The position numbers and the translations under genes are program-made. Under the pieces are notes generated by a model. It was not told where the DNA came from. It made no database searches and saw only the letters and a list, made by a program, of their open reading frames with translations. A DNA stretch of 63,649 bases, filler included, from Asterionella formosa (Eukaryota): NCBI GenBank assembly GCA_002256025.1. It is 21 parts of 21 records of this genome, joined end to end, with 100 filler letters (N's around TTAATTAATTAA, not from the genome) between each part and the next. Parts side by side here need not be neighbours in the genome. Positions count along the whole stretch, not along the records: positions 9,137 to 28,526 come from NKIB01003694.1; 20 more parts are not named here. The stretch is one strand, 5' to 3'. This document shows positions 10,087 through 58,440 of the stretch, one piece after another; position 1 is the stretch's first letter, and every line of letters begins with the position of its first letter.

Positions 10087-12168
10087 ATGTCTGTCCCAGC
10101 CAACGCCACCCTTTCTGACGCCCCCGATGCCATGCTCGAGCCTCAACCACTTCCTTATTCGTCGATGGCCCCCCCCTCGAATCAGGAAGTGCCTTTCCAA
10201 ACGTCATCGTTGTACGTCGGTGACCTAGCTCCAGATGTCAACGAAGGCCTTTTGTTTGAGATCTTCAACGCTGTTGGACCAGTTGCGTCCATTCGTGTCT
10301 GCCGTGATGCTATTACTCGTCGTTCTCTTGGATACTCCTACGTGAATTTTCATCAGATTGTTGATGCCGAACGTGCCCTCGACACCATGAACTACACCAT
10401 GATCAAGACCAAACCCTGCAGAATCATGTGGAGCCAGCGCGATCCCTCCCTTCGTCGCTCTGGAGTTGGAAATATTTTTGTCAAGAACCTTCATGAGTCG
10501 ATTGACAACAAGCAGCTTTACGACACCTTTTCACTATTTGGAAACATTCTGTCGTGCAAGGTTGTGACCGATCGCGAGACTGGAGGTTCGAAGGGATATG
10601 GATATGTCCACTACGAAACTGCTGAAGCTGCCAGTGCTGCTATTGACAAGCTTGATGGGATGTTGATCGATGGGCAGGAGGTTCAGGTGGGACACTTCAT
10701 GCGCCGAAACGAGCGCCCCGGACAGAACGACTGGACTAACCTTTACGTCAAGAACGTTCCACTGGAATGGGACGACAACAAGTTAACGGAAGAATTCTCC
10801 AAGTTCGGTGAAGTAGTCAGTTGTAGCATCACCAAGGGAACCCGCAAGTCGAAGAAAAATCTTTCGAAAGGAGAATCACCAGAAGGAGAGGATACTGAGA
10901 CTGCCGACGAGAACAAGGACTCCGATGAAGCGGAGGGAACGAAGGGGGACTCTCTCGGTTTTGGTTTTGTCAACTTCCAAGAACACGAGGCCGCCGCCGC
11001 TGCCATTGAAGCACTCAATGGTAAAGAGTTTACGACAGTTGGAGAAAATGGCGAAGAAATCACTATCGAAATGTATGTCGGACGCGCACAGAAGAAAGCC
11101 GAGCGTGAGCGTGAACTCCGCGCCAAGTTTGAAGCGGAAAAGATGGATCGTATTTCCAAGTTCCAAGGCGTGAACTTATATGTGAAGAATCTCGATGAAA
11201 GTGTTACGGATGAGACCCTCCGCGACGAATTTGCCGCGATGGGCACTATTACCTCTGCTCGTGTCATGAAGGACATGAAGGACGGCAGATCGCGAGGCTT
11301 TGGCTTTGTATGCTATTCATCCCCTGAAGAGGCTACCCGAGCAGTCAATGAGATGAACGGAAAACTTGTTAACAGCAAACCTATCTTTGTTGCCTTAGCT
11401 CAGCGAAGAGAAGTCCGTCGCGCTCAGCTGGAAGCACAACACGCCACACGTGGACCTGGTGGTCCAGGAGGGCCTGGACAGCCAGGGATGATGCGTGGTG
11501 GACCAATGCCTCCCATGGGATACCCTGGTGCTATGCCAATGTATATGCCAAGACCAGGACCTGGCGGCGCCATGCAACCTGCTTACCCCATGATGCCCCA
11601 AATGATGGGTCCTGGCGGGCGTGGTGCTGGACCAAGGCCAGGAGGGTACCCAGGCATGATGCCAGGTCAACCAGGACGAGGGGGTTACCCCATGCCCTAT
11701 GGTATGATACCTGGACAACCTGGACAGCCTGGACGGGGAGGAGGACGTGGACGTGGGAGAGGTCCTATGGTTCAAGGCCGAGGAGGACCAAATCCAATGA
11801 TTGGACGAGGCCCGAATCAGAATATCAAGTTCAGCCAGCAAGTTCGCAACGCCGGGGCTCCCGGAGGCATGCCTCCTGGAGCTCAAAGTCAAGGTGTCGC
11901 ACTTCCACAACCTCAAATCGAGGGTGCCCTGACAGCATCCGCTCTTGCCTCTGCCTCTCCTGAGATGCAGAAGAACATGATCGGAGAACGTCTCTACCCA
12001 CTTATTCATCATTCTCAACCTGACCTTGCTGGTAAAATTACTGGAATGCTTCTTGAGATGGACAACTCTGAGCTTCTCCATCTTTTAGAAAGTCCCGAAG
12101 CTTTGAACGCCAAAATTTCTGAAGCTCTTCAAGTGTTGGAGGCTCACAACGCCATTCCGATTGAATAA
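10087..12168 (+). CDS. PABP: Cytoplasmic polyadenylate-binding protein (4 RRM, Pro/Gly/Met linker, MLLE domain)
   Basis: SLYVGDL, RSLGYSYVNF, IMWSQRDPSLRRSGVGNIFVKNL, NLYVKNL and KNMIGERLYPLI...AGKITGMLLEMD. The likely start is the first ATG (MSVPANAT), not the TTG at 9952. Confidence 0.98.
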   Translation: MSVPANATLSDAPDAMLEPQPLPYSSMAPPSNQEVPFQTSSLYVGDLAPDVNEGLLFEIFNAVGPVASIRVCRDAITRRSLGYSYVNFHQIVDAERALDTMNYTMIKTKPCRIMWSQRDPSLRRSGVGNIFVKNLHESIDNKQLYDTFSLFGNILSCKVVTDRETGGSKGYGYVHYETAEAASAAIDKLDGMLIDGQEVQVGHFMRRNERPGQNDWTNLYVKNVPLEWDDNKLTEEFSKFGEVVSCSITKGTRKSKKNLSKGESPEGEDTETADENKDSDEAEGTKGDSLGFGFVNFQEHEAAAAAIEALNGKEFTTVGENGEEITIEMYVGRAQKKAERERELRAKFEAEKMDRISKFQGVNLYVKNLDESVTDETLRDEFAAMGTITSARVMKDMKDGRSRGFGFVCYSSPEEATRAVNEMNGKLVNSKPIFVALAQRREVRRAQLEAQHATRGPGGPGGPGQPGMMRGGPMPPMGYPGAMPMYMPRPGPGGAMQPAYPMMPQMMGPGGRGAGPRPGGYPGMMPGQPGRGGYPMPYGMIPGQPGQPGRGGGRGRGRGPMVQGRGGPNPMIGRGPNQNIKFSQQVRNAGAPGGMPPGAQSQGVALPQPQIEGALTASALASASPEMQKNMIGERLYPLIHHSQPDLAGKITGMLLEMDNSELLHLLESPEALNAKISEALQVLEAHNAIPIE

Positions 12169-20773: not shown

Positions 20774-21245
20774 CTGGCTCTCGACAAATCGCCATCCACG
20801 ATCAGGATGTTCATGGTGACAATTTACTCCTTCGTCTTATAGCACGACACGTGCGTATTTTATTGGTTGTTCCTGGTACTCCCTCTGTGCGTACACCAGT
20901 GTCGTACCAATATGTAGTGACGAGATTGCATCGATTTACAGAGCGACTCGATAAATGCCGAGAAAGAACTATTTAGGACGGATTACGTAGAGAGGGTCAG
21001 ATTACCGACTTCTGTGCTCGAAAAAATGCGTTTCATGACTTACATACTAGATGTGAATGTATGGACCCTGATTCTGGAATTAAACTACCAGCTACCAGGT
21101 ACCGGAATTAGCATTTAAATAAAATAATCGAAACCAGTTGAACATACATTATATGCATTGGCAACATGTTTATTTAAAGAAATCCCTTGCATTGATTTTG
21201 CTAGTATGATTGATTTCATTCATCATCATGATAATTGTCATCAAA

Positions 21246-21520
21246 ATGGATGTTGACATGAATGACATCCCTGCTCCTGATGGTCAGATCCTTGGCTTGA
21301 TGGCAAGCAATAATGGGCACAGCTGTGTCAATTATCACTGTTATGGATCAACTGTGAAAGTTGGATCTGTGCCCTTCTTCAATTGGTGTGCAGTGCTGGA
21401 CAAGGTCCTCAAAGAACTCGAGGATGCAATCCAAGTGACAGTGGACTACTATGACCTCCATCCACAAGGTCAAAGGTGCAGAGTTGGGTAACTTTCCAGG
21501 AGAATTGAAGCTGACAAAAT
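21246..21520 (+). pseudogene. Decayed small Cys/His ORF of a repetitive diatom family, probably a DNA-transposon accessory gene
   Basis: DGQILGL...NGHSCVNYHCYGSTVKVG...EDAI...CRVG*LSR resembles a recalled pattern (DGEIVGL..NGRSC..H..CG..V.VG...CxVGFLPR). In-frame stop at 21489. Confidence 0.4.
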
Positions 21521-21629
21521 CGAGGCAGTGCAGCATTTTAATCGTACTGCTGTACTTGTTAAACTGCACAATAAACTATATATATATCATACGTGTTTCA
21601 GGGTATATCAATATGAATGGTAGGAGTAA

Positions 21630-21694
21630 GGGGGAATGCTTAGTTGGTAAGCACGTCTTCATAGGTGGCGGGTTCGCTTCCTGCATTCTCCCCC
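21630..21694 (+). ncRNA. tRNA-like element (SINE-type head or tRNA pseudogene) with A and B boxes and a shortened anticodon arm
   Basis: Acceptor stem GGGGGAA/TTCTCCC; D-arm GCTT-AGTTGGT-AAGC; T-arm GCGGG-TTCGCTT-CCTGC (B box GGTTCGCTTCC). Only ~13 nt lie between the D and T arms. A T-rich tract follows. Confidence 0.6.
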
Positions 21695-21713
21695 TGTCTT
21701 TCTTTTTCATTTA

Positions 21714-22157
21714 GTCCCTAGGGTTCCAGGGGTGCAGCTAATGAATTGAAAACAACAGGTTCCTGCTATATAGATCCCTGCGTACCAGTGCCCGAACTCA
21801 TCATGTTTGTTGGGATGAGTCTGGGTTGGTAAGTAAGTACGCACATAAGTACATGAACGTCAGGGCTGGCAGCACCAGGAAGCGCTATGTGGTCTACCCT
21901 TACTATAGCAAATGAGTAGTCTTAAAGCGCTTAAATGATAATCTGTTTTAGTATTCATTGTGCTACCTACTGACAAGACCTGTGAATCCCAAGTTTTGTT
22001 AGCATAGGAGAGTCCCCAACCACCTTTTGCGAAAGGTGATTGTCTTAGCTAGCCACAGCGTTAGGGAAACTCTGACCGCCTAGGATGATGGCAGCACAAG
22101 CTGCTTGTAGGGGGCAAACCCACTATTTCATGCACCCCAGGCAAGACCGTGTGGGAC
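21714..22157 (+). ncRNA. Candidate large structured RNA domain (unknown class)
   Basis: Closing helix 21714-21745 pairs with 22127-22157 and encloses at least seven internal helices, several needing G-U pairs on the + strand (see findings). Confidence 0.6.
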
Positions 22158-22537
22158 AGTAAGGAGCATGGGAGTTGAACCAAACAAATTTCTTCTCAAA
22201 AAAATTGCAGGAATCAAACCACACAACTTCAAATCAAAGGCAAAATGCTCAACCAACTACTGTAAGCCATTCCCTCAGTCTTTTAGCACTTAAAATAAGT
22301 GAGGTTAAATTAAAAAATTTCAAATCGGACTTGCTCAATCATAACATGATTACATGGCAATTCAATCAATACCTTGAATACATTCAAATGCTATACTACT
22401 ATATAAATCCCTGCATATATCGTACATTCATAGAAAATAATCTAAATAATTTTCCATGACTGTATATATCAGCCAATCTTTTTTCTGAATATATGCTCAC
22501 GACCAGATTCGGTTCACTGGGGGTTTCATCAATAGTT

Positions 22538-24106
22538 TTACCAATCTGTGTTCTCTTTGGTAGTGTCTGCTTTGGAAGCTTCTGCAGCAGCTCGCTCTTC
22601 TTGCAACGCCTCGTGCTTTGTTCGTCTCGCTTGCTTGATATCGTACTGATCCTCCATTTCCTCCAGTGCCATCTTTGCCTGTTGTTCGGTTGCACACTCC
22701 ACAAATGCAAACTTGACATTAAGTGGCACAGTGACAATCACCCCACGATCCCCTCCATACTTTCGGAAAGCACGTTCCAATTCAGCTCGGCGTAATTCGA
22801 CCTCAGCTTCCGTAGAAATTTTGCCAAGTCCCTTGATGAAAAGCTTCTTCGGATGAAATCCGGAGTAAGCATTGACCCCATAAACGTCACTAAGATCTTC
22901 CTTGGCAAGAATTTCCTTATGGCCCCACCAGACCTTGTAAACTGTCCAATCCTCGGTATTTCCATAATCGTCAGTAGCTGGAAATTGCAGGGTCAGGTTG
23001 ACTTTGCAAGTAGGCAACATTTGCCGATGCTCCAAGCGAGCACAATGTTTATCTTCAATGTAAACATCAAAGCCAGCATCTGTTATTTGAATGAGCAAAG
23101 TGCAAGCTTGTTCACCAAAAATCTTGGGAACTCGCGAGAGCGGAACAGATATCGATTGTCCCCATAGGCCCTCTTGCTTGTTATTCAACACCAACAGGCC
23201 TCCCTTTTCGAATTGACGAGGATTGAAATGGAACAGGATAGATTCATACCGAGCGTTATCGGGAGCCGCAATGTTGATGCTAAATCTCTTTGACTCAATT
23301 GGTGCCATGTATTTGATAGCCAAAGTGTTATTTCCTTTTGCCTTGGCTTGCGAAACATCAAAATCAGTCAAAGAAAACGACATGTCGCCATCGGTTGGAG
23401 AGTTGGATGTTTCCGGCGGTTTCCACCTTGGCGCATCTGGCGTGACAGGAAACAAGACCTTTCCTTCCCAGGATTTTAGACCAATTTTCTTGCTAAACTC
23501 ATGTGGTGGCGTTGCGTTCGCTGCCAGATTAGCAATAAGAGAAGACTTATCGTCACGCACTGGTGACATTTTCTTACGCTTGAGTGATAGCCCAATGTGT
23601 TCGTCATCTTGTTCTGTATTCAACAACTTTGTTCTCATTGCTTCTTCGTTTGCTTGATCGCTGATTTCTTTCTTTTGTTTTGATTCTATCTCTTCTCTCC
23701 ATTCCGCCAATTTGGCTTCGCGACGCTCACGAATCGTAAGGTCGTCGTCCTCTTCCTCTTCGTCAGACGATGCTTCAGCCATGACGATTTCTCCGTCAGC
23801 GTCCCGTTCCTCGACATTCTCCTTTCTCTTCTTCTTTCTCGTTTTGATCGGAATTGCGCCACTAGCGTCTTCCCCGTGCATCTTATCATATTCTGCCTTT
23901 TTAGCGTCCATCTTGGCCCGCGCCTGCTGTTCCTTAATGCGAGCAGCCTCCCTTTCATACCTTCGTATCTTTTCGTACATATCTAACAAGTCCTCCTCTT
24001 CCTTTGTTGGCTCAAAATCATCCTTGAGGACTCGAAGGTTGAATTTGCTCTGGAGTTCACGAGAAGGGGTTCGCCAAGAGGAAGTCTGTGAGGAAAGGCC
24101 TGACAT
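22538..24106 (-). CDS. Coiled-coil + galectin-like domain + C-terminal RRM protein
   Basis: RFSINI...ILFHFNPR...LVLNN...WG...F.V..ED is a galectin CRD pattern. KLFIKGL and KFAFVEC are RNP2/RNP1. The N-terminus is a charged coiled coil with basic NLS-like runs. Confidence 0.85.
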   Translation of the reverse strand: MSGLSSQTSSWRTPSRELQSKFNLRVLKDDFEPTKEEEDLLDMYEKIRRYEREAARIKEQQARAKMDAKKAEYDKMHGEDASGAIPIKTRKKKRKENVEERDADGEIVMAEASSDEEEEDDDLTIRERREAKLAEWREEIESKQKKEISDQANEEAMRTKLLNTEQDDEHIGLSLKRKKMSPVRDDKSSLIANLAANATPPHEFSKKIGLKSWEGKVLFPVTPDAPRWKPPETSNSPTDGDMSFSLTDFDVSQAKAKGNNTLAIKYMAPIESKRFSINIAAPDNARYESILFHFNPRQFEKGGLLVLNNKQEGLWGQSISVPLSRVPKIFGEQACTLLIQITDAGFDVYIEDKHCARLEHRQMLPTCKVNLTLQFPATDDYGNTEDWTVYKVWWGHKEILAKEDLSDVYGVNAYSGFHPKKLFIKGLGKISTEAEVELRRAELERAFRKYGGDRGVIVTVPLNVKFAFVECATEQQAKMALEEMEDQYDIKQARRTKHEALQEERAAAEASKADTTKENTDW

Positions 24107-24239
24107 GAGATCTTGATGCTAATAATAATGTACTGGACCATCACAAACCTAGAAATACCGGTAAGCTAATACGAAACATGATTCTATTTTCATTTATGGA
24201 AGTGAGCGAATATTCCTGGTGTACGTTTGCACACTGACA

Positions 24240-24564
24240 AATAGTGAAGGGATCATTTGAGTCGAGTCACAAAAGTGACTGCAACTATGATTATGCTCCA
24301 ACTATGTGTTATAGTAAATGTGGCTCCCAGGGACCACAGAATTGTTTTGGTAAAGACGATGACGAGATGATTGAAGTAGAAGTTGAAAGATCGAAAATGG
24401 ATCTTAGGAAGGAGCTTATTCTAAGTAGTAGAAAGCTCACAATAAAGTAAAGCAGAAAGTGAGTTTCTGACGTTTACTAAAGATCTAGAAGTAGATCAAG
24501 AGAAATAGCTAGCTGAGAGTGAAGTATAGACGTATACTACTCAAGAGTACTAGATACTTTAACA
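24240..24564 (+). repeat. 5' LTR of the Copia element (left edge approximate)
   Basis: Ends CTTTAACA, the inverse of the TGTTAAAG start of the related LTR at 59334. Shares GAGTC repeats, CTCC.ACTAT and CTCACAATAA blocks with that LTR. Lies 46 nt before the gag ATG. Confidence 0.6.
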
Positions 24565-24610
24565 CGTTTATAAACGGACCTTTGTATCTACAAAGCAAAA
24601 GATAAGTAGC

Positions 24611-27600
24611 ATGACTGCAGCAGAAGAGAAAGTCGGAACCATCAAGTTTGATGGAGACGAAAACCATTGGCATGAGTGGAGCGTGAAGGCGCTCGCTCTG
24701 GCCAAAAGCAAGGGGTTTCGCCATATCTATGCCAACGACACGAAACCATGCTCAGATGCGGTCTATTTTACTTCGACGCACGACGAAGAGAAGAAAAATT
24801 ATGAGGATAATGATAAAGCTTACCAGTTTTTAATCCTCAGCTGTACTGGAATCGCTTTTGGGTTAGTGAATCATGCAAAGACGAAGGACCTAATCGATGG
24901 CGATGCTTTCTTAGGATGGAAGAACCTTAACGACAGGTATGCGCCCAACGAAGCATCGGATTTGATTCAGCTTGCTGGAGAATTCAACAAGTGCAACCTC
25001 AAGGATACGAAACAAGACCCTGATGAATGGTTCATTAAGTTAGACAACATCAGGAACAGGATGATACAGATTGATATCGACTTCGAGAAAAAGGACGCCG
25101 AAGTCATCGCGCATATCATTGACAAACTTCCAGGAGAGTACAGCGAAGTGATTACTATGGTTGAAGGAGTAAAAAACGTGACGCTTACGGAGATCAAGGC
25201 TAAGATCAGGGCGTTCTACAAGCGCAAGTTCAAGACAACAGACAAGAATGAAGACGAATTGGCTTTGTTTGTCGGAGGAAAGTTTAAAGGGAACTGTCGC
25301 AACTGTGGAAAGCAGGGACAAAAGGCAGCGGAATGCCGATCAAAAGCGAACACTGCTGGTGGTGGGAACAAGAAACGAGCAAAAGTCGATGAAGCCGTTG
25401 ACAAAGGAGTCAAATGTTTCAATTGTAATAAGTATGCTGGACACATTGCGAAAGATTGCCCTGAGAAAAATAAGAAAGACGAAAAGGACAAAGACAAAGA
25501 AACCGGAATGTATGTTGGGGTGACGATTACGATCGATGACGACGAAGAAACTGCGAAAGAAGGCGTCGAACTCATCAAGAAGACGAACAACAATGAGTTC
25601 AAAAACAAAATCGAAAATAACGAATTTTGTGGAGTGAGTGATGATGTCAAGACTGAAGAATGGTTAGCGGATACAGGAGCTACAAGTCATTTCACTACGT
25701 GCGATGTTGGTATGACAAATATCGAAACAGTCAAGACTCGAGTCATCGTTGGCAATGGAGAGGAAATTTTATGTACCAAACGTGGTGACATCCTCCTCAC
25801 TGATACTGCTACACAGAAGGTCCTACTCCTGAAGAAGGTCCTATATACACCTACCTTCCACAAGAATATACTTAGTGTCGGTATGTTTGTGCGAAATGGG
25901 AGTTTCGAGGTTGGTATTCTCAAGGACAAGATGACCGTACGCAAGGAAGGGGAGCACGACGGACTAACTTTCAAGAGTAAGGCCAATGGTGTGCTCTACT
26001 ATATGCATGGTACTAGAAAGTACGGCAACGAAACAGCATTGTCCACAGAGGACAACAACGAGGAAGCTGCGCCAACGACCGGCAACCCTAGTAAGCAAAC
26101 ACCTAAGAAAAGTATGGACATCAATGTCGCACATGACAAATTCGGGCACACTAGCGAGGCAGCTCTGCGTGCTACATTGAAGTCGATTGGTATTGCGACC
26201 AGTGGAGCCCTACAGCCATGTGAGGGATGTGCTTTGGCTAAAGCAAAATCAAAGGCTGTACCTAAAGTTCTAACTAACAAAGCGACTAAGGCAGGTGAGC
26301 GTTTAGGTGCAGATATAAGTGGCCCTTACAAGAAGTCCATTGTCGGGAGTACTTACTGGATTTTGGTCGTTGATGAATATAGTGGAAAATCCTGGAGTTT
26401 CTTTGTCAAGAAAAAGTCGCAGATGGCGGCTTCAGTAGAACCACTATTGCTTAAATTACGTACTGCTAACTACGTCATTCGGTACCTGCGATGTGACAAT
26501 GCTGGGGAAAATATCAAGGGACTTTCTGCAATGTGTGACAGGCTTAATATCACTATCGAATTTACTGCCCCACATACCCCACAGCAAAACGGTATGGTGG
26601 TACGCAAATTTGTGACTATTAGAGACAGAAGCGTTGCTGCAATGTTGAAGGCTAAATTTTCTGATGAGTCACAAGGACTCTTATGGGCAGAAAGTATCAA
26701 CACACACACACGCCTCACAAATAGTGTATGCAACACAAATGACATGGAGAAAAGCCCAGATTGGATTTTCTATGGGAAGTGTCCCGAGATAGTATATGAT
26801 AATCTTGTTGAATTTGGAAGAATTGGTTGGGTAAAAATACCAGGAAAAATACCTAAACTTGAGGCTAAAGCTACTAAGTGTATAATGATTGGGTACTCTG
26901 ACAACCATGCAGGGGACACATACAGAATGTACAGACCAGACACCAAGAAAGTGATCAATACTAGGAACATCAAGTGGGGAGAGTGGCATGGGAAGTCCAA
27001 TATCACAACAGATATGACCGTATATGACATCACAGAAAATGTCAAAATACCCCCAGCAATTGTGGTACCCCTACCAGTGTTTGGTGATGGAGCTAGTACC
27101 CCGGCTACAACGATACCCCCCATTAAACCTCATGTGCATTTTGCTGCTTCTAAAGACAGCAAATTGCAACGAGAAATGAGGAAATTGGATGGATGGACAC
27201 AGATCCCCATGAAAAATGCCAGAAGAGCACTAATGATGGCGTCACCACCACCAAAACAACACGAAGAGGTTCTTACAACAATGGTCAATGAAATTGACAA
27301 AGTAGTTGAAATACATTGGATATATTCAACATCATTAGCATCTGATCCCGGAGAACCAAAAGGGTACAAACAAGCAATGACTGATCCTGAACGTGATAAG
27401 TGGATCGAGGCAATGAAAGTGGAAATTAACAATTTCTACAAATGCAAAGTGTGGGAGAAATTTCCAAGGAAAATGCTCAATGAACGCAAGATGCTAGGCA
27501 GTCGATGGGTGTTTAAGAAGAAGTCTGAACAAGACTTATCCATCCGCTATAAAGGACGAATTGTTGTGAAGGGATATGTACAAATCCCTGGCGTCGACTT

Positions 27601-28526
27601 CACAGAGTCATTTGCCCCAGTTGCAACCGATACAACAACAAGAACAGTTTTTGCAATCACACTCTATAATCACAGCAAGGATGTTAACGAACGATGGATT
27701 TGCGAAATTGTTGATGTGGAAGCGGCATTCCTAGAAGGTGATATGGACGAAGCAATCTATATTGGCTGGCCAGAAGGAATAGAAGAGCTTGGCTATGAAA
27801 CAAAAGCCGACACCGAAAATTATTGCATCTTGCTCAAAAAAGCGATGTATGGGACAGTTCAGGGAGCTTTGCAGTTTTTTAAGAAACTGGTTGAAATTTT
27901 GAAATTAGTTGGTCTGACTCAATGTCAAGTGGACCCATGTATTTTCTATTTGAAACGGAATGGGAAATTAGTGTTACTAATTGCCTCACACGTTGACGAC
28001 TGCGCTGTAGCCGGAAAGCCTAGTGATGTAGAGTGGTTCAAGAATGAGATAAAGAAATATTTCACAATTAAAGAGCTTGGACAATTGAAGAAACACCTGG
28101 GCGTGTGGTACAAATGGGGAGAGAATTCTACAGGACGCTACTTAGAGAGTAGTATGGAAAGTTTTGTCCAAGGTATGAAAGACGATTTCAAAGATATCTT
28201 TGGACATTTCCCAAAAGATGCAGCAACTCCGGCTTTCCCCAGTACTACGCTGAGAAAGTCAACTGGGAATCCAGTGAAGCATAAAGAGTACCGATCTATG
28301 GTAGGCAAGCTACTATACTACGTTAAAAAGATTGGTCCTGTTTGTTCCAACGCATGCCGAGAATTGTCACAACATTTGGATAATCCAGGTGATGAGCACT
28401 GGAACGCAGTAGAAAGACTACTTGGGTATATTTGTGCTAAACCTGAAAATCGAAGATTGAAGTTGAGACCACCAAAGGAACTACGTGTACAAGATGTCGT
28501 TGACAGCTCTTTCGGCGATAATCCTG
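24611..28526 (+). mobile_element. Ty1/Copia LTR retrotransposon gag-pol (diatom CoDi-like), truncated in RNase H by scaffold end
   Basis: Single ORF with gag, two CCHC knuckles, protease WLADTGATSH, HDKFGH/CEGC, integrase ADISGP/RCDNAGE, RT DVEAAFL and SHVDD, and RNase H start VVDSSF. Domain order PR-IN-RT-RH. Confidence 0.97.
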
Positions 28527-28626
28527 NNNNNNNNNNNNNNNNNNNNNNNNNNNNNNNNNNNNNNNNNNNNTTAATTAATTAANNNNNNNNNNNNNNNNNN
28601 NNNNNNNNNNNNNNNNNNNNNNNNNN

Positions 28627-29930: not shown

Positions 29931-31134
29931 GGTGCGAAGGATCTTCTCTTGTATATGGCGTTTGTTTCAATCGTGATTTGGTTCTGCTGTTTTGTGAGTC
30001 CAAGCAATGATTATTTCTGAAAAACCGATCATTGCTTTGATGCGACTTCTAATTCATTCATGTAGGCCTTTGATTTTGTTAGTCGGACAAATTGACACGG
30101 AATAATAGCCTCGCTGAAAAATGAGCGAAATGCATGATCGTTTCCTATGCATGCATGCCGGTACACTGACTGCTAAAGGCAATACACGCCCGAGGTGGTC
30201 TCTTGCCTGCGAGTATACCTGTGTTCGAGGCTGGGTGGCGCGAGTAGGTTGACCGTACGAGTGGCGCCCCCGGCGCTGCGAGAAGGTCACCCTACGAGTG
30301 CCATCCCAGTCGAGTACACATGTATACAAGAAGGCAAGTAGCCGCCGAGAAGGGTATTGTTGAGGCAATTCCCGCTCTACCTATCGTCGTGTCATTTGCT
30401 TACCTACTGCCCACAAATAAAGCATAAATGTCAATTTTAGCCTACTATTGCCCATCATATAAAATATACTTTCTTATCTTTCCTATCTTCACATCAAAAT
30501 TTGCAATGGGTCTGATATTGCCCATCATTATAACATATTTTGTATTTTTCCTATGTTTGCATTTTGGCATTACAATTTGTAGCAATTGCCCCTTGGTTTT
30601 CCAGCCCTGGGATTGCCGAAATTGGCAAGGGGTATACTTAAGGAAACCATTTTATATACTCTACAGATTTCGATAATTTATATCTAGACCTCACCTCGTT
30701 TTTGTTCATCTCCTGAAAAGTGTACTCCAGCAATTCACCTTTCACCATGCCAATTGTCGTCCATCATGACCGGTTTGAAGCGAAATCAGTTCAGTGATGA
30801 CGCCAGTAGCGATTTGTTTTCTGATGGATGCAGTTGCTTGTTGGATTGCTTGTCTTCTCGAGGTATTCATGTAGTCGCATTGTCCATATTTCGTCGGACG
30901 AACGATGATATCGATACATCTGATGTTGGTGGCAAGTTTTTGCTCCGGTCATGTATGTAATGATGCTTAACGGACATTCTACCAGTTACCGGCAGTCATC
31001 TAGTCTACATACATACGTGGTACTAAAAACAACCATGCATGGTTTAAGCTATGCTTTAATGCTTATTTTGAACACGTTATAATATTATCTCTGTAGACTC
31101 GGTATTATTTTTACGAGACCTGAAATGTTGAATT
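29931..31134 (+). repeat. Left part of the non-coding repeat family, with intact ~180-nt hairpin (30180-30359)
   Basis: Near-identical to 57238-58440 with the same contig ends. Homologous to 15985-16903 and 44478-45141. Confidence 0.9.
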
Positions 31135-31234: not shown

Positions 31235-32215
31235 GTCAGTGGGGAATAAAGACGGTCTTAGGAGTGCCCATTCCGTCCCCTAATGTAGGGCGTATTGTGG
31301 TTTTAATGTATTCACGGTATGATCGCACCCGAGACCAAGAAATGGTGGTGAAATTGGTGAATGAGATGACAAACGTGAGTTTTTTAAACCTTTGCTGATC
31401 CGTCAAATGTGATGGATCAAAACTAACTGATCAATATTATTGTCTTTCCGTAGCTGTTACCTTCCCCAAAATGGAAACTTGTAGTCGACGTTGCGCCAAA
31501 CTCAGAATCACATGTGAAGAATAAAGGGACTCATGGCGAGATCATGAATCTTGCAGCTATAAAACATGAAAGCTTTAAGGACGATGAAATGTCAGCTCTG
31601 ATACAGGAGTTCATGCCACTGGACTCGACGTCGCCATATCTTCCTGGATTCACGTCACTGCTATTGTTGTTGCGGAAACGAACGTCACACACTCCTCTTG
31701 AGACAGAAAATATAAAAACGTTGACAAATCAATTCGTTACATACATGAGTCAGAATAAATCACGCCACGACGTGGCTTTATTACTTGCTCGTGATTTTAT
31801 GGCGATCACGCAACAACAGCAACTTAATATCCAAGCTCAACCGCAACAGCCGGTTGAACAGCAGCAAACCCAACATCTTTCTTTCGTGTCACACACCCAT
31901 CCCCTTCAGGGAATACAAGGATCTGTTTCTAACCATCAACTGCTGCAACTGACACCAGCACAACTGTCCTTGGTATCCGGAGGAGGATTGACTCCAGGAC
32001 TCTTGTCCCATCCTTCACACCAACAAGACCTGCTGCATCATGCTCCTGTTCACTTGGATCCTCTGAGTCAATTGCAGCCGCAGCAACAAATGCAGCAAGC
32101 TTTAGCGCAGGGAGCCTTTCCCGCTCGTACCATACCGGTAGAGGTACTCGGACAACATAATCCAAACCATTATTCTCAGCAATCGCAACAAGGTTCGTCA
32201 TCGAATAACTTTTGA
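31235..32215 (+). CDS. 3' part of a Gln-rich putative regulator with a GAF-like (NIN-like protein type) domain; intron 31375-31453
   Basis: QWGIKTVLGVPIPSPNVGRIVVLMYS...EMTN, then a 79-nt GTGAGT..ACTAAC..TAG intron, then LLPSPKWKLVVDV, in frame with ORF 31514-32215. The domain call is from recalled motif only. Confidence 0.65.
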
Positions 32216-33114
32216 GTTAATGAACACACTATGGAGTACAATTATTAGAAGTGTTTTTGTGTCATGCCAAAATTTGCATGAACCAAGGTCTTTGCCCTAT
32301 TGCGTTTAGTTGTGACGCCAGGGTGCACTTTTCTACTATATACGCAAAGTAGAATCAGTACTTAAAGTTTTCTTGCAGACTTTAGTAGGCTACTGTTTTC
32401 CCTTGACCCAAATCGAGTTGTGCTGCTCCTCTACAAGANNNNNNNNNNNNNNNNNNNNNNNNNNNNNNNNNNNNNNNNNNNNTTAATTAATTAANNNNNN
32501 NNNNNNNNNNNNNNNNNNNNNNNNNNNNNNNNNNNNNNACAACAACTTCTATAGATCATTTGCCAAAGGAGCAATCCGGAAGCAATCATGCTGAATCCCA
32601 TGGGATTGTTTTGCCAGCAGGTGAGGAAACCATGTTTGGGAATACACACAACTGTTGTCGACTACATACCGGTATACAGGTACAAAATTTTAAAAAAATA
32701 TAGATGCATCTCAATTGATTTCGAAATCATGAAACATGTGGGAATCCACGGCGCTTGAAATCTCACTGGACGACGACCACATGATGTGTGTCATAATACA
32801 CTATGTATGAAGCAGAATGTCACTTTGCTATATAATAATTTACCGGTGGTACCTGGTATTGGTACCTGGTACCAGGTCCTGAGGAGGACAGTGTGTTTGG
32901 ATATATAATGATACGATGTATCCTACCAGGAGGTACCAGTACCAGGTGCCGGTATTCAAAGAGGAGTGAGCCAAACAAGCATACCGAGTTTTGTTGTCGT
33001 ACGACGGAGTATGATAAAATCCGGTGGTATATATGTAGTATGTAGTCTACCGGTGTGCATGTGAGCATTGTTGGTACCATATACCGGTTACTCCGTATAT
33101 CCTACCAAGATTCC

Positions 33115-33742
33115 TGTAAGTGCTTAATTCCCGTGAGTACTGGTCCCTCTACAGCTAGTTAAATACTACTTTAGAATCTCAGTTCCTTGTTAATGTAGCT
33201 GCCGCTGGCATCCGTTGCAAGCGTTTCTCCCTCTCAACACACACAGGTTACTGATCCCTTACCAGACTTCCCTCCATCATGCGATCTCCATCGCCTCATG
33301 ATGCCAATGACACTGATGCAGCTGCATTCAGTGGCGAATTGGCTGCATGGCAACAACACAATGCTGGTGCATTATTTCCCCATCCCCATGGTGAACTTTT
33401 GGTGGCACCGCTTAACCCTAACCCTAACCCTAACCAGAACCCTAACCAGAACCCTAACCAGAACCCTAACCAGAACCCTAACCCTACCTGCCATCACCAG
33501 TTCTCCACTAATGCTCAACTTCCGCATTTTGTCCCGCCCTCATCATCCGAGTTCGCTATGGACCCCCGCACGTCTGCGCCTCCTCTTCGCTATTCAGCCC
33601 CGTATTCTATGAGTCCCTACCCACCACCCCATATTTCACCCCGGGCTCTGCCTTCGGCTTCCCCGGCATCCTATCTACACCTTTCTGACCATGCCTCTGC
33701 CTGGTCTGCCCTTTCCGGCCCTTCCTCCCACTCCCACAGCTC
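33115..33742 (+). mobile_element. Putative 5' end of an LTR retrotransposon: short TG...CA LTR (33115-33245), PBS-like GGTTACTGATCCC, Pro/Ser-rich gag-like ORF from 33279
   Basis: TGTAAG...ACACA is immediately followed by a sequence resembling the copia half-tRNAiMet PBS GGTTATGRGCCC. A C-rich ORF is open to the contig end. No diagnostic domain is reached. Confidence 0.4.
33413..33486 (+). repeat. Telomere-like hexamer array (AACCCT)3(AACCAG AACCCT)4 AACCCT inside an ORF
   Basis: Read directly; encodes NPNPNPNQNPNQNPNQNPNQNPNP. Confidence 0.9.
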
Positions 33743-33842: not shown

Positions 33843-34823
33843 GTCAGTGGGGAATAAAGACGGTCTTAGGAGTGCCCATTCCGTCCCCTAATGTAGGGCG
33901 TATTGTGGTTTTAATGTATTCACGGTATGATCGCACCCGAGACCAAGAAATGGTGGTGAAATTGGTGAACGAGATGACAAACGTGAGTTTTTAAACCTTT
34001 GCTGATCCGTCAAATGGGATGGATCAAAACTAACTGATCAATATTCTTGTCTTTTTCGTAGCTGTTACCTTCCCCAAAATGGAAACTTGTAGTCGACGTT
34101 GCCCCTAATTCAGAATCACAAGTGAAGAATAAAGGGATTCATGGCGAGATCATGAATCCTGCAGATATAAAAAATGAAAGCATGAAGGATGATGAAATGT
34201 CAGCTCTGATACAGGAGTACATGCCACTGGACTCGACGTCGCCATATCTTCCTGGATTCACGTCACTGTTATTGTTGTTGCGGAAACGAACGTCGCACAC
34301 TCCTCGTGAGGCAGAAAATTTAAAAACGTTGACAAATCAATTCGTTACATACATGAGTCAGAATAAATCACGCCACGACGTGGCTATATTACTGGCTCGT
34401 GATTTTATGGCGATCACGCAACAACAGCAACTTAATATCCAAGCTCAACCGCAACAGCCCCTTGAACAGCAGCAAACCCAACCTCTTTCTTTCGTGTCAC
34501 ACCCCCATCCCCTTCAGGGAATACAAGGGTCTGTTTCTAACCATCAGCTGCTGCAACTGACACCAGCACAACTTTCCTTGGTATCCGGGGGAGGATTGAC
34601 TCCAGTACTTTTGTCCCATCCTTCACACCAACAAGACCTGCTGCATCATGCTCGTGTTCACTTGGATCCTCTGAGTCAATTGCAGCCGCAGCAGCAAATG
34701 CAGCAAGCTTTAGCGCAGGGTGCCTTTCCCGCTCGTACCAAGCCGGCAGAGGTAGTCGGACAACATAATCCACACCATTATTCTCAGCAATCGCAACAAG
34801 GTTCGTCATCGAATAACTTTTGA
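33843..34823 (+). CDS. Second allele/paralog of the gene at 31235-32215; intron 33983-34061
   Basis: Contig 33843-35046 has the same start, end and length as 31235-32438. The 233-aa ORFs differ at 19 residues. Confidence 0.65.
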
Positions 34824-57237: not shown

Positions 57238-58440
57238 GGTGCGAAGGATCTCCTCTTGTATATGGCGTTTGTTTCAATCGTGATTTGGTTCTGCTGTTTT
57301 GTGAGTCCAAGCAATGATTATTTCTGAAAAACCGATCATTGCTTTGATGCGACTTCTAATTCATACATGTAGGCCTTTGATTTTGTTAGTCGGACAAATT
57401 GACACGGAATAATAGCCTCGCTGAAAAATGAGCGAAATGCATGATCGTTTCCTATGCATGCATGCCGGTACACTGACTGCTGAAGGCAATACACGCCCGA
57501 GGTGGTCTCTTGCCTGCGAGTATACCTGTGTTCGAGGCTGGGTGGCGCGAGTAGGTTGACCGTACGAGTGGCACCCCCGGTGCTGCGAAAAGGTCACCCT
57601 GCGAGTGCCATCCCAGTCGAGTACACATGTATGCAAGAAGGCAAGTAGCCGCTGAGAAGGGTATGTTGAGGCAATTCCCGCTCTACCTATCGTCGTGTCA
57701 TTTGCTTACCTACTGCCCACAAATAAAGCATAAATGTCAATTTTAGCTTTCTATTGCCCATCATATAAAATATACTTTCTTATCTTTCCTATCTTCACAT
57801 CAAAATTTGCAATGGGTCTGATATTGCCCATCATTTTAACATATTTTGGATATTTCATATGTTCGCATTTTGGCAAGACAACAGACGCCAATTGCCCCTC
57901 GGTTTTCCAGCCCTGGGATTGCCGAAATTGGCAAGGGGTATACTTAAGGAAACCATTTTATATACTATACAGATTTTAATAATTTATATCTAGAATTCAC
58001 CTCGTGTTTGTTCGTCTCCTGAAAAGTGGACTCCGGCAATTCACCTTTCACCATGCCAATTGTCATCCATCATGACCGGTTTGAAGCGAAATCAGTTCCG
58101 CGATGACGCCAGTAGCAACTCTTTGCCTAACGGATGCGGTTGATTGATGGATTGCTTGTCTTCTCGAGGTATTCATGTAGTCGCATTGTCCATATTTCGT
58201 CAGACGAACGATGATATCGATACATCTGATGTTGGTGGCAAGTTTTCGCTCCGGTCATTTATGTAATGATGCTTAACGGACATTCTACCAGTTACCGGCA
58301 GTCATCTAGTCTTCATACATACGTGGTACTAAAAACAACCATGCATGGTTTAAGCTATGCTTTAATGCTTATTTTGAACACGTTATAATATTATCTCTGT
58401 AGACTCGGTATTATTTTTACGAGACCTGAAATGTTGAATT
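57238..58440 (+). repeat. Second near-identical copy of 29931-31134 (repeat family left part with intact hairpin)
   Basis: Same ends, scattered substitutions. Confidence 0.9.

Follow-up and report, generated by a model that had tools for sequence, protein, structure and literature searches.

A densely paired stretch of Asterionella formosa DNA probably spans the junction of two tRNA-headed repeats

A stretch of about 445 nt (21714-22157) in the Asterionella formosa window, the whole 63,649-nt stretch of DNA analysed here, contains so many complementary strings that it raises the question of whether it encodes one large structured RNA. An earlier note had described it in these terms, as a ribozyme- or IRES-like RNA of the + strand in a mobile-looking element. 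The window is eukaryotic nuclear DNA with open reading frames (ORFs) that include a PfkB kinase, a poly(A)-binding protein, a PPR protein and a ubiquitin hydrolase, and the candidate sits in a gap of about 1 kb between two convergent ORFs. The surrounding features are as follows.

21210-21491, + strand: short ORF without a Pfam family, left neighbour of the candidate gap
22538-24118, - strand: galectin-domain ORF, right neighbour of the candidate gap
24563-28582, + strand: Copia-type polyprotein (gag, integrase, RVT_2), a single 1339-aa open frame entering an N gap

We matched contigs from three metatranscriptomes (X19, X16 and X20) and one metagenome (X6) to the 2 kb at 21000-23000; the runs containing the stretch are freshwater, lake and algae metagenomes. 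Two or three related contigs match the short left-hand ORF at 85-95% identity in X6 and X19, and this similarity suggests that the predicted frame is a real conserved exon. Adjoining it upstream is a weak snoRNA-like C/D-box match (snoR11, 21141-21232 on the - strand, 23.3 bits, E 0.51, gathering score 50) with a UGAUGA box close to its 5' end. Elsewhere in the window, two ORFs at 31454-32215 and 34062-34823 on the + strand are both 253 aa long, have no Pfam family and are spaced by about 2.6 kb, and a 20-nt word of 22369-22388 recurs at 31301-31320 and 33909-33928; the ORF pair and the recurring word together look like a tandem duplication of about 2.6 kb.

Folding of the proposed RNA

Every helix string named for the proposed RNA was found at, or adjacent to, the position assigned to it. 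Both closing helices, GTCCC/GGGAC (21714/22153) and GGGGTGC/GCACCCC (21729/22132), are part of the MFE fold of 21714-22157, which on the + strand also contains hairpins at 21970/21993, 22021/22032, 22061/22070 and 21880/21926, that is, most of those that had been listed. The stretch folds better than its dinucleotide shuffles (z -4.09 on the + strand and -4.29 on the - strand, 100 shuffles), and an independent rerun with 60 shuffles returned z-scores of -3.71 and -4.51, respectively. The strand preference claimed for the RNA did not hold up, the - strand folding as well as the + strand. The ends of the stretch had been chosen by eye, and when it was ranked, after GC regression, among 332 further windows of 444 nt from the 63-kb sequence, it was equalled or bettered by five on the + strand and by two on the - strand, so that it falls in the top 1-2% yet is not unique. 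Windows that fold equally well or better after GC correction lie at about 30001-30600, 11251-12000, 57301-57900 and 32701-33300; some of these may be repeats or GC-rich coding sequence, and the one at 11.4 kb falls inside the poly(A)-binding protein ORF.

No known Rfam family reaches its gathering score anywhere in the window. At E<=10, the Rfam matches within 21000-23000 are sub-threshold and at chance level, the only relevant one being a 22.7-bit match of the tRNA clan at 21630-21692, and ARAGORN finds no tRNA in the locus. A single + strand structured RNA of about 445 nt (ribozyme, IRES or similar) would be in keeping with the strings that pair as described, with the shuffle score and rank, with the lack of an explanatory Rfam family and with the long-range helices, which contribute about -17 kcal/mol beyond the sum of the two halves. 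The equal folding of the - strand, however, and the make-up and relatives of the locus set out below have already largely refuted this reading, which we consider extremely improbable.

The two repeats and the direct repeat

The locus consists of repeated sequence with definable boundaries, and the 445-nt stretch is probably a chimera of two short tRNA-headed interspersed repeats lying tail to tail, the right one having been inserted later. Three loci were obtained by an exact-pattern search of JGI metagenome contigs; two of them (L003 and L001) are true relatives of the right-hand repeat, and the third (L002) is a chance match. The features of the right-hand repeat, and of the direct repeat that brackets it, are the following.

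21936-22276, - strand: SINE-like element, 341 nt, starting at a tRNA-like head and ending ...AAAACAGATTATCA; bracketed by the direct repeat
21918-21935: left copy of the direct repeat, 18 nt, AGTCTTAAAGCGCTTAAA; target-site-like duplication
22277-22294: right copy of the direct repeat, 18 nt, AGTCTTTTAGCACTTAAA; target-site-like duplication
22205-22276, - strand: tRNA-like head of the inserted element; the window copy is decayed, with a 7-nt insertion in the D region
22210-22220, - strand: B-box-like GGTTTGATTCC in this head, 1 mismatch
22198-22204, - strand: T7 run (A7 on the + strand), directly behind the T-arm-like part of the head
22158-22197, - strand: second partial tRNA-like piece (T-arm and 3' acceptor-like), in L003 ending ...CTCCTTACCA
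22171-22181, - strand: B-box-like GGTTCAACTCC in the second partial tRNA-like piece, 1 mismatch
21954-22157: conserved core of the inserted family, with hairpins CTGACAAGAC/GTTTTGTTAG, CACCTTT/AAAGGTG, GTTAGG/CTCTGAC and GTAG.GGG/CCC.CTAT

In the repeat search, the two copies of the direct repeat are identical at 15 of 18 positions (83%), a match that shuffling the two boundary zones reproduced in just 3 of 2000 trials. The right end of the element is marked by the loose ends of contigs behind 22258, whose consensus at the head reads ...GAGCCATTCCCC, and the right copy of the direct repeat begins 1 base past the point at which these independent contigs diverge. The left copy stops 6-8 nt before the likeness between L003 and L001 ends. 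On this sequence evidence, we read the direct repeat as a target-site duplication generated by insertion of the 341-nt element. A duplication of 18 nt suits target-primed reverse transcription more than cut-and-paste transposition.

The left-hand repeat, which would predate the insertion, comprises four features.

21629-21695, + strand: tRNA-like head with acceptor, D-arm and T-arm-like stems and no proper anticodon arm
21671-21681, + strand: B-box-like GGTTCGCTTCC in the left head, 1 mismatch to the B-box pattern
21704-21708, + strand: T5 run, Pol III terminator-like by sequence, 9 nt past the left head
21696-21917, + strand: body of the left repeat, including the 5' half of the proposed RNA (from 21714)

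The left head matches the Rfam tRNA-Sec model at 22.7 bits (E 0.17), under the gathering score, and folds with acceptor, D and T-like stems (z -2.12); between 40 and 45 related contigs per run span 21677/21692 within it. A T5 run shortened by 2 bases is seen in a minority of the related contigs of X19 and X6, and it accounts for most of the depth in X16. The left body is covered in X6 at a depth of 14-61, where contigs from the same organism reach 3-7. A search for a duplication flanking the left element found none. The head of the inserted element, in turn, does not fold as a cloverleaf (z -0.17). Two loose ends include its T7 run, which they read as A6 to A8+, and L003 reads A4-C-A2 there. 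Ten B-box-like matches occur in the window, and this locus contains three of them. No A-box match with 1 mismatch or fewer was found in the window copies, where this box is degenerate; the loose-end consensuses of related contigs read TGGCTTAGTGG-like. The stretch at 22175-22290, previously described as A/C-rich and ORF-like in a decayed state, turned out to be tRNA-like sequence in reverse complement, its two B-box-like motifs lying on the - strand. The 3' end of the element on the - strand is ...CTA(TA)AAACA(T/G)A, without poly(A).

These features suggest a sequence of events in which the older repeat, with its + strand tRNA-like head, would have been present first, and a SINE-like retroposon of the - strand, a polarity that we infer, would have inserted into it or just behind it. 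Read on the - strand, the element has its tRNA-like head at the start, which is where an internal Pol III promoter would lie in a transcript. The putative mechanism would be Pol III transcription from the head, after which a LINE enzyme would reverse-transcribe the RNA at a nicked target. The product would have the layout seen here, with a presumably tRNA-derived head that bears B-box-like motifs, then about 200 nt of core that many copies conserve, and an 18-nt duplication flanking the whole. Several observations go against a SINE. The T7 run behind the - strand head and the T5 run behind the + strand head should stop Pol III before the body. The element has neither a poly(A) nor a simple-repeat tail, the window copies have a degenerate A-box, and the search for a partner LINE found none, LINE-type reverse transcriptase being absent from the 22 ORFs of >=150 aa scanned in the window. 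No duplication was found around L003 or the left element, and the 63.6-kb window holds just one copy of the inserted element.

The placement of the direct repeat bears on the possibility that 21629-22276 is one DNA transposon, of MITE or foldback type, with the tRNA-like heads as its terminal inverted repeats. The heads are inverted relative to each other and have motifs of 15 nt at 87% (I1) and 11 nt at 91% (I4) in common, and some contigs seem to join the conserved 5' part to the 3' part across shorter middles. These joints, linking 217xx to 218xx-219xx, each depend on a single contig in which one side measures 22-51 nt at 85% likeness, and were treated as unreliable. The inverted alignment of the two halves scores 38, however, against a shuffle mean of 31.9 (sd 5.3, max 55), and no duplication surrounds 21629-22276; the direct repeat brackets the right module alone, and the right module alone is what L003 and L001 carry. 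Cut-and-paste transposases make duplications of 2-10 nt, and 18 nt is far longer. We consider a single transposon very unlikely. The same alignment score, not above shuffles, led us to reject the two modules as one inverted duplication.

The module on the right could also be taken for a fragment of LTR or TRIM type, in which a TG...CA terminal repeat is followed by a tRNA-complementary primer-binding site. The core of L003 is indeed followed by TGGTAAGGAGTGTGGGAGTCGAACCC, the exact complement of the tRNA-like 3' end ...GGGTTCGACTCCCACACTCCTTACCA; L003 and L001 have TGTTTT at their left end, and ...GGGACA closes the core of both L001 and the window copy. Yet TGG is present in one of three copies, no second terminal repeat occurs in the window or the loci, and conservation ends about 115 nt past the putative primer site. 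Integrases typically make duplications of 4-6 nt, unlike the 18 nt found here, and this reading appears highly improbable. The sequence ...GGGTTCGACTCCCACACTCCTTACCA, at 560-640 on the + strand of the L003 locus, is a tRNA 3' end with CCA, where the window and L001 have CTG; this CCA end could be a hint of a processed tRNA in the ancestry of the family.

Relatives of the locus and structural constraint

Related contigs number 440 in X19 (RNA), 301 in X6 (DNA), 22 in X16 and 23 in X20, most of them 85-95% identical to the window, and numbers this high may in part come from a multitude of species instead of repeated copies within each genome. The contigs heap on 21603-21736 and 21938-22272, where depth ranges from hundreds to about 1300, compared with roughly 5-40 over neighbouring genes. 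Over the core (21954-22157) it reaches 700-1300 in X19 and 200-700 in X6, and single sites are covered by as many as 52 contigs. The middle, 21737-21937, is matched by 8-14 contigs per run (for example at 21819 and 21859), at lower depth than the flanking peaks. Short matches are embedded in longer unrelated transcripts, as in the case of 67 nt within a 1715-nt RNA contig. For RNA contigs nearly identical to the window itself, depth is about 2 (X16 record 1 and X20 record 17), versus 14-40 for the neighbouring gene; this tells against a single RNA as a weak point, since contigs measure expression poorly.

The two metagenome loci resemble each other (92% over 286 nt) more than they do the window (85% over 282 nt for L003 and 82% over 254 nt for L001, in the region 21950-22234). 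Their flanks are unrelated, and the likeness ends sharply at the left side in both. Neither L003, with 226 nt upstream of the element, nor L001, with 749 nt, shows likeness to 21400-21950, and the 5' half of the proposed RNA is missing in both relatives. The majority alleles of the runs are carried by L003, which makes the window copy a diverged member; in the three-sequence alignment the window copy is without 33 nt found in L003 and L001. No target duplication was found around L003, and neither locus has an Rfam match at E<=1 or a tRNA according to ARAGORN. In viral contigs, exact-pattern scans returned no match, a scan of prokaryote genomes returned three bacterial matches, all by chance, and a protein search with one frame of the core returned five unnamed clusters.

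Two further origins were considered for this sequence and rejected. An organelle insert (NUPT or NUMT) finds no tRNA or Rfam matches, and the flanks of L003 and L001, without a significant translated match to the window, were judged non-organellar by eye. Protein-coding sequence is at odds with the 1-4-nt indels of related contigs, which fall within or between hairpins; tblastx matches occur in several frames and on both strands, which is what likeness at the DNA level would produce.

The proposal of a single closed domain did not survive division at the insertion boundary, where the parts fold differently. The 5' part (21714-21935) has z-scores of -1.11 on the + strand and -3.22 on the - strand, and 21936-22157, an arbitrary sub-stretch, has -3.35 and -2.19; the inserted element with its own ends (21936-22276) folds no better than shuffles (z -1.14 and -0.69). 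The two closing helices, ATGAA/TTCAT, GGCTGGC/GCTAGCC, AGCAC/GTGCT and the MFE pairing of 21736-21754 with 21944-21964 all cross the boundary, and they pair bases of two different elements.

Sequence variation among the relatives bears directly on these helices. At 22136, A replaces the C of the window in 2238 of 2246 of the depth in X19 (42 contigs) and in 418 of 424 in X6, and at 22130, T replaces A in 1929 of 1953 and 349 of 349, respectively; L003 and L001 agree with both alleles. Set against the 5' arms of the window, these bases would introduce one mismatch each into GGGGTGC/GCACCCC and ATGAA/TTCAT. Since about 99-100% of the related depth reads 22136 A and 22130 T, the perfect complementarity of the closing helices is private to the window copy. 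The GCTAGCC arm and the TAGCT partner of the suggested pseudoknot include 4 nt (22046-22049) that are missing from L003 and L001. The long-range helices may combine chance complementarity with, in part, substitutions private to this copy, and pairing across the two elements was possibly aided by a distant likeness of their head-proximal segments in opposite orientation.

One ribozyme- or IRES-like RNA of about 445 nt would therefore have to cross the junction between an inserted element and older sequence, with a 5' half absent in two of two relatives and closing helices specific to the window. The earlier note was borne out in its mobile-looking, SINE-like part, given the repeated tRNA-headed modules, one of them with an 18-nt target-site-like duplication, and failed in the part that concerned a large ribozyme or IRES.

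Local hairpins were examined in the three aligned sequences. Among the 30 pairs of the five local hairpins none is compensatory; 23 are invariant, and all seven that vary lose pairing. No one-sided change preserves a pair, and 500 of 500 shuffles do at least as well. The earlier note had named a lack of compensatory change in homologues as an outcome that would refute its RNA, and these 30 pairs show that outcome; with only three sequences aligned, this absence of covariation is weak evidence. On the same alignment, RNAalifold predicts 71 pairs for the + strand, of which one is changed on both sides, six on one side and ten are broken, and 66 pairs for the - strand, with none changed on both sides, nine on one side and five broken. 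The pair changed on both sides is the long-range pair 21972/22152 inside the element, A-U in the window and G-C in L003 and L001. In CTGACAAGAC/GTTTTGTTAG, the + strand is favoured by two G-U pairs. The hairpin at 22017-22042 points to the - strand, where it extends to 11 pairs, shows two one-sided changes and, unlike on the + strand, keeps its variants paired. Weak as this sequence evidence is, the strand signal across hairpins appears contradictory and leaves a + strand RNA unsupported. Telomerase RNA was rejected as a candidate, since the template-like words on the - strand are only 7 nt long and one of them, CCCTAAC (22060-22066, - strand), is not kept in one loose-end consensus (TTTGGGG).

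Two observations stand against the junction of two repeats as a full account, namely that the 3' part alone (21936-22157) keeps its z-score of -3.35 on the + strand and that the pair 21972/22152 changes on both sides. Both could be explained if the 3' module (about 21941-22200) were a multi-copy family of functional non-coding RNA genes, for instance Pol III-linked, with hairpins that are real on one strand. Copies that stay near one consensus (the 92% identity of L003 and L001, and the majority alleles of L003), the high depth in three RNA runs and the 11 pairs reached by 22017-22042 on the - strand, where two one-sided changes keep pairing, would fit such a family as well. Against it are the loss of pairing in all varying hairpin pairs, the indels in and between hairpins, the contradictory strand signal, the element's shuffle-like folding with its own ends, the target-site-like duplication of the window copy, the pieces inside unrelated longer transcripts and the lack of Rfam matches for L001 and L003. 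We regard an RNA gene family as unlikely. It is very unlikely, too, that the core (21954-22157) is a functional structured RNA module of a very abundant, so far undescribed tRNA-headed repeat family of freshwater microalgae. Such a core could serve, on either strand, to recruit a reverse transcriptase or to process itself, like the highly conserved central domains of SINE superfamilies, and the novelty would then lie in the family, not in this locus.

Because the stretch is most likely the junction of two repeats, it seems to be ordinary repetitive DNA rather than a structured RNA of a new kind. Had a new large ribozyme been borne out, it would have mattered greatly; the evidence does not back one. 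The locus carries a caution for structure scans, in that two repeats lying tail to tail give z-scores near -4 on both strands and a seemingly convincing 'closed' fold.

Relation to known mobile elements and structured RNAs

In size and helix density, the stretch resembles RNase P/MRP, group I and II introns, SRP, tmRNA and telomerase RNA, although no Rfam match supports any of them. MITEs and foldback elements are likewise small, with inverted ends, here tRNA-like, and strong predicted hairpins on both strands; unlike them, the locus has an inverted similarity that is insignificant and an 18-nt duplication around one half only. The closest resemblance is to tRNA-derived SINEs, with which the 341-nt element shares a tRNA-like 5' head, B-box-like motifs, a body conserved in dispersed copies in unrelated contexts and a direct repeat at its flanks that, at 18 nt, has a length expected of target-primed reverse transcription (about 7-20 nt). 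It differs from them in the T6-8 run behind the head, in the second partial tRNA-like piece and in the lack of a poly(A) or simple-repeat tail. As in the SINE superfamilies with a conserved central domain, heads differ over one core, as seen between the window and L003. At most, the element adds a new and abundant member to a kind of mobile element already known; it is not a new class of RNA.

Among diatoms, the Phatr3 annotation of Phaeodactylum tricornutum lists 13 'putative SINE' copies (PMC5859163), and SINEs are reported in Cyclotella cryptica v2, where their roles 'remain poorly understood' (PMC7466962). In a comparison by copy counts and not by consensus sequences, the present element falls in the same broad class and, if the window comes from a diatom, in a similar organism. 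In these two accounts, diatom SINEs have so far been 'putative' pipeline calls (PMC5859163, PMC7466962); the locus described here is a modest addition to them, a SINE-like copy in which a head, a conserved core and a target-site-like duplication can be told apart and which has many relatives among freshwater metagenome and metatranscriptome contigs.
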